NCBI GenBank assembly: GCA_964016885.1
Contig: OZ024754.1
Coordinates: 31,496,001 to 31,560,000, forward strand
Length of the DNA stretch: 64,000 bases
Direction: 5' to 3'
DNA from: Eledone cirrhosa
Taxonomy: Eukaryota
The translations under genes were made by a program, and so were the position numbers. Below the pieces are notes generated by a model that was given only the letters and a program-made list of their open reading frames with translations, had not been told where the DNA came from and searched no databases. This document shows, one piece after another, positions 25,603-60,634 of this stretch (the stretch's first letter is position 1; each line of letters opens with the position of its first letter).

Positions 25603-26025
25603 ATGTAGAGGTTATATTTAATTTGTTGGGATACAACAAGCAAAATATTTTTATAACAAATTATTGGAGTAAATATACAATATATTAACAAATGGAAACT
25701 ATATTTATAAAACCATATTTATTTCATTACACATATTTCAAGGGCCACCAGAGCAAACTATGGTGTGCTTTCATCAGATAAAATATAATATAGGTTAGTT
25801 TTATAAATAAATATTGAAATACCCTTTAAAAATGCAACCATTCTGGTTGGAATCTCCTGGTTGCATTTTTTAAGGGTATGTCAATATTTATTTATAAAAC
25901 TAACCTATATTATATTTTATCTGATGAAAGCGCACCATAGTTTGCTCTGGTGGCCCTTGAAATATGTATAATGAAATAAATATGGTTTTATAAATATAGT
26001 TTCCATTTGTTAATATATTGTATAT
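25603..26025 (-). mobile_element. Fold-back hammerhead-bearing element, family A (Penelope-like, non-autonomous)
   Basis: Inverted arms 25673-25840 / 25858-26025, unpaired tail 25603-25672, flanked by (TA)n, homologous to the copies at 49962 and 60175. Confidence 0.8.
25913..25978 (+). ncRNA. Type I hammerhead ribozyme, family A
   Basis: TATTTTAT-CTGATGA-AAG C GCACCA..TGGTGGC C CTT-GAAA-TATGTA-TA-ATGAAATA. An antisense copy lies in the left arm at about 25720-25785. Confidence 0.72.
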
Positions 26026-26042
26026 ATATATATATATATATA

Positions 26043-26360
26043 TCATCATCATCATCATCATTTCATTTTACGTTCGCTTTTCCCTGCTTGCAAGGGTGGG
26101 ACGGGAACTGATTCTGGCTTGATTTCTACAGCTGGATGCCCTTCCTAACATCAACCTCATTTACAGTGAGTGCTGGGTGCTTTTTTGCTGTGGCACCTCC
26201 ACGACGACTTTGCAGTGGAGTAAACTGGAGCTGAGTAAACTGGAGCAATGTGAAATAAAGTGTCTTGCTCAAGGAAACAACACATCACCTGGTCTGAGAA
26301 TTGAATTCACAACCTTTCGATTGCAACGCCAATGCTCTAACCACTAAGCCATGTGCCTCC
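26043..26360 (-). mobile_element. tRNA-derived CORE-like SINE
   Basis: Same family as 17442 and 18826, with a (CAT)n tail at the left. Confidence 0.85.
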
Positions 26361-26819
26361 ATATATATATAGAGCCATGTGCCTCTATATATATATAGAG
26401 AGAGAGAGAGAGTGTGTGTGGTGTGTCTACTGTACAAAGACCAGGAAGACCACAAATCAGGGAAGTACTTGATACATGATGAGATGCAGAGTGGGTATAT
26501 TAAAGAGGTAGAACCTCAGAGTGGGTATATTAAAGAGGTAGAACCTCACAGTGAGTGTTTGTATGATATATCTTTTATGTTTTAGATACTTCCATAGGGA
26601 GAGGGTGGGGGTAAATGTCCCCTGTTTTAACTGCTATTGTAACCAAGTTCTAGAAGTGGAAGCATCAGGAGGGTGACAGGCTGGTGGGGAAACCTCTGTA
26701 AAAGGGGTCATTTCATTCCACAGGCCATCTACTAAGCACTGTGTGACCCTCAAATGTCACTGACAAACACACTACAAGGAAGGGATTGAGTGCTTTTAGA
26801 GGTGAGCTGTATGTATCCC

Positions 26820-56300: not shown

Positions 56301-58039
56301 TCAATGAAAATAAGACTGAATGGAAAGACACGTGGGTATGTAAATAGATTCCAATGAAAGAATTGCCAATGTATGTATGTATATGTATGATTTATATATA
56401 TAAATATATACGTATGTATTTGTGTGTGTGTGTATAGCTATGAATGTTTATGTGTGTGCATATATATATATATAGATATAGATATATATAAATAGATAGA
56501 TAGATAGATTGATATTTTGTGTGTGTATACATATACAAATATCGATGTTTATGAATGTATGTGTGTGTATATATACATGTGTGTTTAATTGAATAGAATT
56601 AAGGTGGCTTCTGTTTGTTTTGTCCTCAGACTATCTGACAGCAGAAATGTAAAAAAAAAAAAGGTGATGAAGAGGAGAGGGAAGAGGAGGAAGTAGAAGA
56701 CCACTGGCTATCGAAACTACCCCTCTTCTCTCTCACCTATGTCTCTCCCTCTCTTTCTCTCTTACTTCACGTAAGTCTGTCTCTTTCACACTCACACACA
56801 CACACACACACAGTTCTTGCCTCCCACCACTCTCTACTACAACACAAAGACACATACATACATGTATATATATATTCACACCACACGCATACCGTTCCTG
56901 TCTCCCACCGTTCACTACAGCATAAAGACACATACATATACGTTTACACACACACACACACACACATATCTATGCTTATATATATATATATATATATATA
57001 TATATATACAAACACACACTCCCCTCATGCTTTCCACCGCTAGCTAAAGACACATACATATACGTTTACTTACACATACACACATCTATGTTTATATATA
57101 CATATGTATATATATATATACATATATATATATATATATATATATATATATATAATGGAAAAAAATGAAACGAAATTTCATTTCTCGCTCTTAGTACGGC
57201 TGTTACTTAAATATAAGTATGTATATATACATACATATATGTATACAGACGTACAGTAGCATGTATATATATATATACATACATGCACACATATATATAT
57301 ATGTATGTATGTGTGTGTGCATGTATGTATATATATATATACATACTACTGTACGTCTGTATACATATATGTATGTACGTATACATACTTATATATATAT
57401 ATATATATATATGCAGAGGTTATATTTAATTTGTTGGGATACAACAAGCTTAAAAATATTTGTCTGTGTGTGTGTGTATATATATATACACACACAGTGT
57501 GAGTGTGTGTGTATATATATACACACACACACACTCACACCCTCTCTCCTTATGCCTCCCACCGCCTACTACAACACAAAGACGTATATATTTACACATG
57601 TATATACACACACACACACACACACACACACACACACACACACACTCATTTCCCACCTTTCTCTGCTACATTCACAATCTTACACATTCTAGACAAGCCT
57701 CATATCTCCCTCTATAAACACACACACACACACACATACACACACACACACACACACACACACACACACACACACACACACACACACACACGAACAAACA
57801 CGTTAGCTCTCTACTCTTTCCCCACCACCACCACCCCCTCTCTCTCTCCCCATTGCTCCCCCTCTTCCTGTCTTAACTCCCACAAAGCATTTATTCCGAT
57901 CCTCCGAGGAAGTATCCGGCCCTGGAGACGTTTTTAAATCTACTTTCTATATGTCCCTGCTCCCCGGGGCCCATACACACCTCTGCAGTTGGCTAAAATA
58001 TCTTTTATTGACAAAACAGTTGATCCTTACCGTTCTTTA

Positions 58040-58660
58040 CATCACCACCTCCACCACCACCACCATCATTATCAACATCACCATCACCGCCACCATTATC
58101 AACATCATTATCACCGGCACCACCACCACTATTATCAACATCATCATTATCAACATCATTATCACCATCACCACCATCATTATCATTATCACCATCACCA
58201 CCATCGTCACCACCATCATCACTATAACCACCACCAGCACCACCACCACTATAACCACCACCACCATCATCACTATAACCACCACCACCACCTCCATCAT
58301 CACTATAACCATCACCACCACCACCACCATCATCACTATAACCACCACCTCCATCATCACTATAACCACCACCACTATCGCCATCATTACCACCACCATC
58401 ATCATCACTATAACCACCACCACCACCATCATCATCACTATAACCATCACCACCACCACCACCATCATCACTATAACCACCACCACTATCATCACTATAA
58501 CCACCACCACTATCGCCATCATTACCACCACCATCATCATCACTATAACCACCACCACCATCATCACTATAACCACCACCACCACCACCATCATCACTAT
58601 AACCACCACCACCATCATCACTATAACCACCACCACTATCGCCATCATTACCACCATCAA
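58040..58660. repeat. (ACC/ATC)n low-complexity repeat
   Basis: Recurrent ATCACTATAACCACCACC. Confidence 0.93.
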
Positions 58661-60174
58661 CCAGGAATCTTGCCATTCTACGGGATACGCGTCGTTTCAT
58701 TATCCGCGTCTTCCACACACACACACACACACACACACACACACACACACACACACACACACACACACACACACACACACACATATTAATGTATCTGTCT
58801 CACATAGTCTCTATTTATCTCTATCACTATCACTTCCCACCCCCTCTCTCTCTCTCTCTCTCTCTCTCTCTCTGTTGTCACTGTCTTTCACTTAATGTCT
58901 CAGTCCCTCTCTTTCACTACATAGTTACTCTCTCTCTCTCTCTCTCTCTGTTGTCACTGTCTTTCACTAGATATCTCAGTCCCGCTCTTTCACTAAATAG
59001 TTACTCTCTCTCTCTCTCTGTTGTGTCACCGTACTTTCACTTAATATCTCAGTTCCTCTCTTTCACTACATAGTTACTCTCTCTCTCTCTGTTGTCACTG
59101 TCTTTCACTTAATATCTTAGTCCCTCTCTTTCACTAAATATCTTAGTTACTTTCTCTCTCCCTCTCTCTCTCTCTCTCTCTCTTGTCCCTCACTTTCACT
59201 CAATTTCTTTGTAACTGTCTCAAACTCGCTTAATTTTTACAGACGTGAAAGGTCAAGTTAGTTTCTAATATTCAAAGAATATCGAGTTTGTTGTTTTGAA
59301 ATAAGCTAAGTTGGTGTGTGAGAGAGTGAGAGAGAGAGGGGAGAGAGAGAGAGAGAGAGAGAGGGAGAGAGAGAGAGAGTTTCAACGTTCCAGACCTGAG
59401 ATCCTTGTTTTGCTCTATGGATTATCTTGTTTCGTTTTTTTTTATGGTGGTGAGGGGTATTCATATAGAATAGCGTCGGTTATGACTGATAATAAAGAAC
59501 AGAAGACAAAGAACGTGGACATTTGTGGATATTTACTAAAACATGGCACTTCCATTTCCTAGAAGTTGGTAGTAGTGTTGGTGTTGTTGTTGATGCTGGT
59601 GTTATTGATGTTGGTGGTGTTTGTGTTGTTAATGTTATTGTTGTTGATGTTGTTGTTGGTGTTTGTGATATTGATGTTGTTATCGGTGGTGGTGATGTTA
59701 GTGTTATTGGTGGTGGTGGTGGTGGTGGTGGTGGTGATGTTGGTGGTAGTGTTTGTGTTGTTGGTACTACTTGTGTTGTTGTTGGTGGTGGTGTTTGTAG
59801 ATATTTACGAAAACATGGAACTTCCTTTTCACAGAGGTTGGTATGTATGTATGCATATGTATGTATATTAAGTTGAGGTACAACATATATAATATGTATG
59901 ATGATTGTGTTTCTCAGTAGAAAAGCTCAATGGACATTTGCCCAGAACATCAATAATCCAGATTATAAATATATAATTCAAATTATTTATATATATATAT
60001 ATATATATATTATATATATACCTATATATATATATATATATATATATATATATATATACCTATATATATATATATATATATATATGTATATATATCTATA
60101 TATATATATATATATATATATATATATATATATATATATATATATATATATATATATATATATATATATATATA

Positions 60175-60634
60175 TATATACGATATTAAACAAATGGAAA
60201 CTATATTTATAAAACCATATTTATTTCATTATACATATTTCAGGGATACCATATTAAAAATATGGCATGCCTTCGTCAGATAAAATACAATATATAAACA
60301 GTTTTATAAATAATTTTGACGTACCATATTATAAGCGACCATTAAATTAGGAAGCTGTCTACCCAGACAGCTTCCTAATTTAATGGTTGCTTATAATATG
60401 GTACGTCAAAATTATTTATAAAATTGTTTATATATTGCATTTTATCTGACGAAGGCATGCCATATTTTTAATATGGTATCCCTGAAATATGTATAATGAA
60501 ATAAATATGGTTTTATAAATATAGTTTCCATTTGTTTAATATCGTATATATACTCCTAAAACTTGTCGAGTGCTTTATATCAGTTATAAAATATTTACTT
60601 GTTGTAACCCAACAATTTTAAATAAAACCTTTGT
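60175..60634 (+). mobile_element. Fold-back hammerhead-bearing element, family A
   Basis: Inverted arms about 60175-60360 / 60365-60550 with a 4-nt loop (ACCC), tail to about 60634, (TA)n on both sides. Confidence 0.82.
60439..60502 (+). ncRNA. Type I hammerhead ribozyme, family A
   Basis: ATTTTAT-CTGACGA-AGG C ATGCCATATT..AATATGGTAT C CCT-GAAA-TATGTA-TA-ATGAAAT. AGG/CCT is compensatory relative to AAG/CTT in the other copies. An antisense copy lies in the left arm. Confidence 0.78.

Follow-up and report, generated by a model that had tools for sequence, protein, structure and literature searches.

The window that we analysed, a 64,000-nucleotide stretch of the Eledone cirrhosa genome, contains three palindromes at 25603-26025, 49962-50503 and 60175-60634, just where an earlier note made from the letters alone had placed them. 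They raise the question of what kind of element leaves such fold-backs and how the two arms of one insertion come to face each other. Our analysis identified them as 5'-truncated insertions (stubs) of a Hydra-clade Penelope-like retrotransposon (PLE), the clade being assigned by motifs compared by eye. We further propose, at a probability of roughly two in three, that a single RNA is primed twice to make each stub (twin priming) and that synthesis then runs off at a predicted transcription start.

We numbered element positions relative to a landmark G (position 0), which in copy 2 is window position 50413, within the GTATAT of the proximal start site (50413-50418, plus strand). The short arms of all three copies halt at GTATAT and then run into (TA)n, while the long arms end at GCATAT or ACATAT, from ~70 nt (copy 1) to 90 nt beyond the short-arm stop. 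In copy 1 (locus L095) the element sense is the minus strand: its tailed arm (25603-25857) runs from about -181 in the pLTR through the hammerhead and the landmark G (25678) to the distal start site at (TA)n. Its tail of ~70 nt (25603-25672, minus strand) carries an 18-nt deletion that takes the 3' half of hairpin box 1. The tail-less inverted arm (25858-26025, plus strand) extends from -161 to the proximal start site, followed by (TA)n. The two 168-bp arms (25673-25840 and 25858-26025) do flank 17 nt, and this "spacer" (25841-25857, minus strand) is an unpaired 5' extension of the tailed arm.

Copy 2 (locus L001) has a tail-less inverted arm (49962-50187, minus strand) that reaches from the proximal start site to beyond -216 and is the longer of the two. 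It is followed by a junction (50188-50210) that we read from the sequence as a short tandem duplication of pLTR sequence, the centre being composite and ~30 nt long, and by a tailed arm (50211-50508, plus strand) from -202 to +95 that ends in GCATATA and (TA)n. On the same strand lie an Inr-like YCACTATCC motif (50225-50233), whose A at 50227 is position -186, and the tail (50419-50508) with hairpin box 1 at 50421-50442, which shows a G-to-C change in this copy. In copy 3 (locus L065) the tail-less inverted arm (60176-60360, minus strand) reaches -179 and the tailed arm (60359-60639, plus strand) spans -185 to +95, with hairpin box 1 (ACTC...GAGT-GC; 60552-60573, plus strand) at the start of its tail. 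This tailed arm starts within the Inr-like motif, so that the 4-nt centre ACCC (60361-60364) is its 5' end. The "spacers" of the earlier note consist mostly of element sequence found in one arm only.

No family A ORF was found inside the window. The Penelope-like parent that had been postulated was found elsewhere in the same genome as a pLTR-ORF-pLTR unit, at a locus (L031) where pLTRs 97-99% identical to copy 2 flank an RT+EN frame on both sides with a period of 4,067 bp; sister copies have open frames of 743-750 aa. The 743-aa frame carries YRDD, and its modelled protein (pLDDT 89.8) folds like telomerase RT, the top four Foldseek matches being all telomerase RTs (TERT, E 5e-9 to 2e-8). Pfam, PDB sequence and profile searches gave nothing significant for the parent ORF. 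At its C-terminus lies a GIY-YIG endonuclease, with two strands bearing the invariant Y623, Y636 and G638 followed by R647 and H651, which agrees with the Hydra EN alignment when compared by eye; the Atlas neighbours of the protein carry GIY-YIG in part, and the parent itself was unmatched in the Pfam GIY-YIG search. A single-ORF telomerase-like RT, a C-terminal EN, partial-tandem pLTRs, an inverted 5'-truncated copy, a one-sided tail and a pLTR hammerhead motif are all traits of EN+ Penelope-like elements.

The earlier note had named the Penelope/Neptune clade; the motifs match the Hydra clade instead. A copy at locus L040 shows IRWRAF (an RWK variant) and SDKTNN (DKG changed to DKT), and among 120 homologues RW[KR] occurs in 99 and DK[TS] in 118. 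The linker CNCRNKSNCP (CxCx5C), CDLC (CxxC) and CRH (CxH) are present, there is no CCHH, and only one Cys lies between the two EN strands. We rejected the Neptune and Nematis clades, as the CX2-5CxxC linker and the EN CCHH are absent from the parent protein. Insertion is into (TA)n, with 208 of 224 classified arm ends running into TA. The 4,067-bp period at L031 exceeds the length general for Hydra elements (< 3 kb) because of a long AT-rich 3' UTR, the ORF being of usual length; in the cited part of PMC8557442, shortness is typical of the clade, not diagnostic. A non-LTR retrozyme was also rejected, for the copies stand head-to-head or alone, their sequence is continuous with that of the parent 3' UTR, and they are not short ORF-less head-to-tail tandems.

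The window holds a fold-back of a second Hydra-type family (family B, 49078-49475), which served us as a replicate, with hairpin box 1 beside its start site (49156-49130, minus strand). The layout is shared between the families, as had been claimed: family B has the same two-site arrangement and its own parent of the same kind, which shows about 50% protein identity with the family A parent.

To follow the outer ends we used samples made of the best matches of each query, not random draws, and four of the five family A query sets required a tail; arm ends were measured against references without inverted arms of their own. The proposal of fixed outer ends was borne out: arms end at two TA-like sites ~90 nt apart, +5 (proximal) or +95 (distal), and TA runs flank 128 of 137 tailed and 80 of 87 tail-less ends. 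The first ATG (~+130 to +140) follows downstream of both sites. Loose ends running into TA at +5 and +95 also occur in contigs of the public runs X1-X3, which come from one sample. All four runs covered belong to one study and consist of contigs of unrecorded kind; they display no RNA ends, and their depth was not taken as a measure of copy number. A 60-nt TA-rich query gave zero matches and was uninformative. Many copies have one arm only.

Use of the two sites follows a pairing rule. In 79 insertions one tailed arm is combined with one tail-less arm, in either orientation, against three with two tails and none with two tail-less arms. All 11 tail-less arms with a classifiable partner had a tailed one, compared with 3 of 71 tailed arms (p=3e-11); the two-tailed stubs scored were L067, L176 and L165, the last being the inverted arm of an ORF-bearing copy. 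Across 4 kb, the type of the far end, forecast beforehand from the inverted arm, was right in 13 of 14 copies: a tailed inverted arm went with a tail-less far end in 7 of 8 and a tail-less one with a tailed far end in 6 of 6 (p=0.005), locus L050 being the one exception. Next to each start site, on its 3' side, lies a 4-bp hairpin box of the pattern RCTC-loop-GAGY-RC in both families, a motif defined after inspecting families A and B, whose folding on its own was without significance (z -1.1 to +0.4). Against a need for the boxes, one shared deletion has removed half of box 1 in five insertions of the copy 1 type, three of which have their partner arm at the proximal site.

How are the two arms related? 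The palindrome is made afresh at each insertion, as had been suspected, with 79 of 79 junctions distinct. This weighs against a DNA MITE or one palindromic master copy spreading as a unit, for which long inverted repeats, TA flanks and high copy number would speak: the centres all differ, the ends are asymmetric, one-armed copies are frequent, and an RT-encoding parent holds the same sequence as direct pLTRs. We consider this origin extremely improbable, and a DNA transposon was rejected in the absence of a fixed centre and of symmetric terminal inverted repeats. The single variable turn-around point of the earlier note did not survive, since each arm has an end of its own: in 38 of 79 pairs the tail-less arm goes beyond the tailed arm on the 5' side by 10 nt or more, and in 8 pairs the overlap is ~10 nt at most, a nearly non-overlapping arrangement of the L1 twin-priming type. 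Such non-nested arms cannot be yielded without later deletion by one cDNA folding back, and a longer tail-less arm means that the "spacer" is no turn-around loop.

These pairs bear directly on self-priming, proposed by Arkhipova et al. 2013 (PMC3846280, as cited in part) and close to the snap-back model of the earlier note, in which one cDNA (or antisense RNA) folds back at a variable point and is copied up to a TA microhomology. It would account for the short palindromic or overlapping junctions, which are common (1-13 nt by BLAST end points in 49 of 79 pairs), and for the 26 of 79 pairs whose arms end within 9 nt of each other. It requires, however, that the tail-less arm be nested in the tailed one, and the 4-kb arm lacks the tail in 7 of the 8 ORF-bearing copies whose inverted arm is tailed. 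Snap-back is therefore largely refuted unless post-insertion deletions of the centre are very common, and we regard it as improbable.

The inner ends are not scattered evenly either. Between -187 and -175 we counted 75 of 164 arms where 12 were expected, with only 5 ends in the 12 nt upstream of this interval, and the pile-up persisted (53 of 112) when we counted only arms with 95% identity or more to a longer reference. The edge lies just after the Inr-like YCA, whose A is at -186 and which is kept in all family A subfamilies; it is spread over ~12 nt, with a second cluster at -175 to -179, and a quarter of the inner ends fall elsewhere. We infer from the DNA ends only that this A would be the transcription start. 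Congruently, half of the family B tail-less arms (15 of 30) end at -159 to -153, around the A of TCATATG, in a region without obvious DNA similarity to family A.

The same edge could instead be an RT stall, a processing site or a joining hotspot within the twin-priming scheme, a reading that we find doubtful. The ~12-nt spread in family A, the pyrimidine tract upstream of the edge and the ATAT in the family B motif, which could pair with the target, fit it, as does the fact that the transcription start rests on DNA ends. On the other hand, the edge falls at the A of YCA in all subfamilies and in the dissimilar family B, it is seen in solo arms and in both arm types, and 14 of 30 family B arms run at least 300 nt past it, a pattern to be expected from two classes of template.

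Twin priming on one RNA, the reading that we prefer, would proceed as follows. The protein, probably as a dimer, would cut both strands of a TA run, and each cut 3' end would pair with the UAUA stretch beside a box and be extended on the same RNA. On transcripts begun at the Inr-like motif, synthesis would run off at the RNA 5' end and leave cDNAs of ~190 and ~280 nt, and the two cDNA ends would be joined head to head, mostly via a few nt of microhomology. Long copies would need a template without that 5' end, which tandem read-through, strand transfer or a circle might provide.

Variants do not demonstrate that the two arms of a pair were copied from the same RNA molecule. Two priming events on two RNAs of the same element, joined later and with site choice set by protein subunits, would suit the low-frequency variants of the young copy 2 subfamily: those present in at least two insertions lie on one arm 19 times and on both 8 times, although most look like recurrent single changes. 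They would also suit the fact that both arms are usually copies of one stretch, for which a single RNA as template would call for strand displacement. Against this, the arms pass -190 together (both in 8 pairs, a single arm in 2 and 5, neither in 64; p=2e-6), inverted arms past -190 go with ORF-bearing copies (11 of 17, compared with 5 of 69 stubs), and subfamily mixing was not seen, the subfamily being always common to both arms and shared variants lying on both arms 593 times and on one 93 times. Varied small deletions also cluster over box 1 in tailed arms, in a query-biased sample. We judge two RNAs unlikely, if somewhat less so than snap-back. Gene conversion was rejected as the main cause of arm identity, as private variants were counted 91 times on a single arm and 20 times on both.

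Long copies do not follow the edge. Sense pLTR remnants upstream of ORFs end in the edge interval in only 1 of 27 cases and beyond -190 in 15 of 27, and without a pile-up at -186 a simple linear-RNA model fails for these copies. A two-template cycle of the Hydra-clade PLE is a tentative answer that we hold to be possible at best. Docking of two RT subunits at the two hairpin boxes would ensure a single priming event on each target strand; capped linear transcripts would give strong-stop-like run-off stubs; and dimeric hammerhead cleavage at both pLTRs followed by ligation would give a ~4.07 kb circle without a 5' end. This circle would template long and tandem copies and restore the sequence upstream of the transcription start. 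The cycle fits the distal box, which is missing from every 3' pLTR and yet tailed 4-kb copies exist, the pLTR remnants that ignore the edge, the zero arm ends at the ribozyme cut and the conserved core. If true, it would assign a role to the PLE hammerhead and account at once for tails, inverted arms and pLTRs.

The hammerhead itself was recovered with a type I descriptor, which gave 8 matches in the window, 6 in the three copies (both arms each) and 2 in family B, against a mean of 0.02 and a maximum of 1 on 100 shuffles. The motifs of the tailed arms lie at 25720-25785 (minus strand), 50309-50373 (plus) and 60439-60502 (plus), and their mirrors in the tail-less arms at 25913-25978 (plus), 50071-50007 (minus) and 60287-60222 (minus). 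The descriptor returned the same cleavage sites as the earlier note, after 25970, 50365 and 60495, but 25970 sits in the tail-less arm; as the element of copy 1 is on the minus strand, the ribozyme of its sense arm is 25785-25720, with a predicted cut after 25728. The copy 2 motif has an 8-bp stem I, a stem II of 3 bp, a C.C mismatch and 7 bp, and a 2-bp stem III with a self-complementary loop. The Rfam search listed no hammerhead family among 150 of 163 matches for the window, its miRNA matches being rejected as simple repeats, and gave no hammerhead match for copy 2 alone.

The stem II variants AAG/CTT and AGG/CCT, and those of distal stem II, are as the note wrote them. Covariation is present in three pairs that change on both sides and is weak, 208 of 500 shuffles reaching that count; selection on the ribozyme is plausible, and neither this test nor the core (lineage-shared variants 0 of 9, compared with 30 of 101 elsewhere, p=0.11) lent it statistical support. 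The core is intact in 149 of 158 arms, and single hammerheads fold with modest z-scores (-0.5 to -2.2). Arm ends at the cut (-52 to -42) numbered 0 of 224, in a sample mostly biased against such ends, and 0 of 30 among the best matches of a query beginning exactly at the cut, about half of which overlap other sampled loci. The ribozyme in the stubs is likely a passenger copied from uncleaved RNA, with a predicted cleavage activity; transcription of a stub would trap it in a long hairpin.

The general layout is already known, since an inverted arm with a one-sided tail, (TA)n targets and a hammerhead are published PLE traits. What is added here are the one-of-each outer ends, the inner-end edge, the non-nested arms and the hairpin boxes. 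The Hydra clade of C-terminal EN+ PLEs was described by Craig et al. 2021 (PMC8557442), where Penelope-13_HM has a 5'-truncated inverted copy. In the cited passages of that paper, the clade has in common with family A a single ORF with RT then C-terminal EN, RWR for RWK and DKT, the CxCx5C linker, CxxC and CxH around conserved E and N, no CC between the GIY and YIG strands, (TA)n targets and a pLTR hammerhead. Consensus lengths there are 1.1-3.0 kb and tails 30-40 nt, against a 4.07-kb unit and ~90 nt here; Hydra-1_Obim has another hammerhead and protein than family A, compared by eye; and one-of-each end use, the edge and the boxes are not reported in those passages.

In the cited portion of the work on Adineta vaga Penelope (PMC3846280), an inverted 5' pLTR, an optional tail, palindromic junctions and an Inr-like TCACT in the pLTR recur; they are explained by self-priming on an antisense template, against which the non-nested arms argue here, and TSDs are unreadable in (TA)n in our case. 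The D. virilis Penelope TSS lies in the pLTR (PMC8557442, PMC2377424, both as cited in part). With minimal PLE hammerheads and metazoan retrozymes (PMC4209133, PMC7229834, cited sections) family A shares the type I core, a bulge near the base of a long stem II and a very short stem III with a self-complementary loop, consistent with dimer-only activity. Unlike retrozymes, the stubs derive directly from an autonomous element and, being inverted and not tandem, cannot release monomer circles.

The closest biochemical parallel we can draw is PAc (Poseidon of Anolis carolinensis), for which Frangieh et al. 2024 (PMC11167929) described two-site internal RT initiation. As in our reading of family A, the cited part of that study has two internal RT starts bounding the tail, both target strands cut and extended, an uncleaved RNA as template and a predicted dimer; inverted arms are not addressed in it. 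The PAc starts lie 111-118 nt into the ORF and lack target homology, whereas the family A sites lie upstream of the ATG and are TA-like, each followed by a box; microhomology priming thus remains a proposal here. The origin of PLE inverted repeats, tails and pLTRs was named as open by Craig et al. 2021 (PMC8557442) and Schostak et al. 2008 (PMC2377424), in the parts cited.

A twin-priming or strong-stop account of PLE palindromes did not turn up in the literature, where subscription coverage was thin and one may nonetheless have been published. Telomerase has its closest relatives in the PLE RTs, and this abundant young family makes the question countable through rules: a target strand has one start, the 5' edge is sharp, and every start has a box next to it. 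Each rule predicts at the single-nucleotide level for RNA-end mapping and a PAc-like in vitro assay. Annotators should take such hairpin repeats neither for MITEs nor for stand-alone ribozyme genes. In L1 twin priming, reportedly described by Ostertag and Kazazian in 2001, the second target strand primes internally and the head-to-head cDNAs are joined by microhomology. Non-overlapping products of that kind likewise occur in family A; unlike in L1, its second site is fixed, both sites are internal, either gives the long cDNA, and most arms overlap.

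The three family A fold-backs claimed in the earlier note, at 25603-26025 (copy 1, whose element sense is the minus strand), 49962-50503 (copy 2) and 60175-60634 (copy 3), were confirmed as described. A type I hammerhead descriptor gave eight matches in the window, namely both arms of these copies and both arms of a family B fold-back (49078-49475), against a mean of 0.02 in 100 shuffles; cleavage was predicted after 25970, 50365 and 60495, as in the earlier note. The hammerhead core, said to be kept, was intact in 149 of 158 arms. Sixteen haplotypes were each present in two or more loci; among them, three stem II pairs varied on both sides: pair 17-46 (A-U, G.U, G-C), pair 21-42 (U-A to C-G) and a third that hinges on how gaps are placed. 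Counted by pairs, the observed covariation was reached in 208 of 500 shuffles; counted by cells it was reached in none, with kinship uncontrolled. Lineage-shared variants were 0/9 in the core vs 30/101 elsewhere (p=0.11). These sequence comparisons make it plausible, but do not prove, that selection acts on the ribozyme of the parent lineage, as suggested. If a stub were transcribed, its hammerhead motif would be wholly paired inside the long hairpin.

The 3.0 Gb genome yielded first-look candidates numbering at least 1,059, 1,361 and 777 for copies 1, 2 and 3, with 40 scored for each. As predicted, an autonomous Penelope-like element (PLE) with a reverse transcriptase and endonuclease ORF is present in the same genome. 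At one locus, L031, two matches to its terminal repeat (pLTR), 4,067 bp apart, flank this frame, in the order inverted arm, partial pLTR, ORF, long AT-rich 3' UTR, pLTR and (TA)n; the ORF is frameshifted there and open in sister copies (743-750 aa). The parent protein was not recognised in Pfam and PDB sequence searches. When its AlphaFold model (95 sequences, pLDDT 89.8) was used in a structure search, the four best matches were telomerase reverse transcriptases. The protein carries the motifs RWR, DKT, CNCRNKSNCP, CDLC and CRH and lacks CCHH, a combination given for the Hydra clade in section 11 of Craig et al. 2021 (PMC8557442). Judged by these motifs and by alignment excerpts compared by eye, family A belongs to the Hydra clade rather than to the Penelope/Neptune clade first named. 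The best named homologue is an Argonauta hians protein (39%); identity with Hydra-1_Obim was ruled out, since its hammerhead differs. Another locus, L040, has Asn-rich, low-confidence inserts in the ORF (residues 485-512 and 589-598) resembling the N-rich inserts of Adineta Penelope elements described in PMC3846280. Two family A copies adjoin pieces of other PLEs: a Hydra-like C-terminal half of another family (L031:8321-9241, plus strand) and a Neptune-like fragment with a Pfam GIY-YIG match and a CxxCxxC-type linker (L034:4081-4994, plus strand).

Next, we mapped 150 loci from five queries on 35 natural, uninterrupted pLTR references, counting from the G of the internal GTATAT (position 0; window 50413 in copy 2), with negative values 5' in the element sense. 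After removal of 8 duplicates, the outer arm ends of the 142 loci lay at +3 to +9 (proximal site, tail-less arms) or at +87 to +96 (distal site, tailed arms). A TA run followed in 80/87 and 128/137 cases, respectively, which bears out the claim of fixed outer ends at (TA)n. Public-run contigs from one sample (X1-X3) show loose ends running into TA at both positions. In the parent, the proximal site reads GTATAT and the distal one GCATATA; since both are TA-like, the RNA could pair at each of them with a TA repeat of the target.

A tailed arm was paired with a tail-less one in 79 loci, two tails occurred in 3 and two tail-less arms in none; the partner was unclassifiable in 8, and 52 had no partner nearby. 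Because four of the five queries demanded a tail, the fair comparison is the conditional one: the partner was tailed for 11/11 tail-less arms vs 3/71 tailed arms (p=3e-11). We had predicted in advance that ORF-bearing insertions would keep this one-of-each rule across 4 kb, and both ends were classifiable in 14 of 20 regions. Where the inverted arm was tailed, the far end lacked a tail in 7/8; where it was tail-less, the far end was tailed in 6/6 (p=0.005). Long cDNA can come from either site. Among the fetched loci, family A and B stubs are nested, often sitting in each other's TA flanks (L198, L186, L207, L004, L019), and one insertion with its flanks occurs twice in inverted orientation ~440 kb apart on C13 (L006 and L007), reflecting either a segmental duplication or a haplotype left uncollapsed.

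All 79 palindrome junctions were distinct, so the palindrome arises anew at each insertion, as the earlier note had held. Its single variable turn-around point did not stand. The tail-less arm was longer by at least 10 nt in 38 of the 79 pairs and the tailed arm in 15, the two were within 9 nt in 26, and in 8 pairs the arms had at most about 10 nt in common. The two arms end independently of each other, and the spacers of the window copies, taken for turn-around loops, are instead mostly unpaired ends of the longer arm. A cDNA folding back on itself would always leave the tail-less arm contained within its tailed partner; the turn-around of the earlier note and the self-priming proposed in PMC3846280 therefore fit poorly, unless centres were often deleted afterwards. 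By BLAST end points, the junctions had 1-13 nt overlap in 49 cases, were blunt in 5 and carried extra letters in 25.

Between -300 and -125, 75 of 164 inner ends (those facing the palindrome centre) fell at -187 to -175, where 12 were expected, and only 5 lay in the 12 nt upstream. This edge, the A of YCACTA (-186; window 50227 in copy 2), is present in all subfamilies. It is not an alignment artefact, since the same zone held 53 of 112 inner ends when the count was limited to arms with 95% identity or more to a longer reference. Both arms passed -190 in 8 pairs, one arm in 7 and neither in 64 (p=2e-6); inverted arms extended beyond it in 11/17 ORF-bearing copies vs 5/69 stubs. The simplest reading is that the edge marks a predicted transcription start in the pLTR and that both cDNAs would be copied from one RNA template, running off at its 5' end. 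Counting against simple run-off, the pLTR remnants before ORFs ended at the edge in 1/27 and beyond -190 in 15/27; rare variants common to two or more insertions give no proof of a single template.

A short hairpin box lies 3' of each start site: ACTC-N12-GAGT-GC from +8 and GCTC-N10-GAGC-GC from +100. The motif, drawn up after families A and B had been inspected, occurs in the 4,067-nt unit at those two places only (0.01 matches on average in 2,000 shuffles), and its stems are too short for a folding score. The parent of family B is a second Hydra-type family with about 50% protein identity to family A (L266, L276, L290, L298, L304). It shares both sites and both boxes; the boxes lie 90 nt from each other and show the A-U to G-C swap seen in family A (L290, L304). 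Its inner edge, at -157, is sharper: 15/30 tail-less arms end in a 7-nt zone around the A of TCATATG, and 14/30 extend 300 nt or more from the landmark. Out of sample, the box was found where the one-sided tail begins in two further window fold-back families (48482; 19288 and the related 24149), and the coral Hydra-2_Amil in the supplement text of PMC8557442 shows a GCTC...GAGC-AC box near its 3' end. Half of box 1 is deleted alike in five copy-1-type insertions on two sequence backgrounds, which may reflect a recurrent skip or a dispensable box. In copy-1-type tailed arms (L095-L124, from a query that favoured deleted copies), many different short deletions cluster over box 1, and one of them, of 18 nt, recurs on two backgrounds; the reverse transcriptase may have skipped a site that was occupied. 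No 3' pLTR receives a copy of the distal box, so long tailed copies would need tandem RNA, strand transfer or a circle.

The first of these further families (~48350-48570, plus strand) is a fold-back of higher GC content, tailed on one side into (TA)n, with its box 9 nt past the arm end; it adjoins many fetched loci and may hold part of another hammerhead. The second comprises two related fold-back or tail pieces at 19240-19423 and 24090-24480, with both boxes on the minus strand. The window also contains an imperfect palindrome ending in (TA)n (24982-25215, arms about 85% alike), without a match to the hammerhead descriptor; a 330-bp inverted pair (17438-17767 and 18825-19154, 97% complementary, 1,057 nt between), with related pieces at 26061-26370 adjoining copy 1; and minisatellite arrays at 8074-9005 (~50-75 nt), 29570-30051 (~60), 32693-33879 (~62) and 45518-46412 (~82).

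Published work on PLEs and the Hydra clade (PMC8557442, PMC3846280) already describes copies that are inverted and 5'-truncated, tails on one side, (TA)n targets and hammerheads, and two internal start sites were demonstrated for PAc, the Poseidon of Anolis carolinensis (Frangieh et al. 2024, PMC11167929). Copies 1-3 therefore represent a known clade, within which their family is new. Three features were not found in the literature searched, whose coverage was limited: the one-of-each rule, the edge read as run-off and the pair of boxes. These rules make an acknowledged open question on PLE replication directly testable. According to PMC8557442 and PMC2377424, the mapped transcription start of the D. 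virilis Penelope lies within the pLTR. Stem III, of 2 bp with a self-complementary loop, is like that of the dimer-type PLE hammerheads treated in PMC4209133. Finally, arms continue through the predicted cut site, and 0/30 began there among the best matches of a query starting exactly at the cut; the RNA templates were thus uncleaved or re-ligated, which agrees with the account of PAc in PMC11167929.
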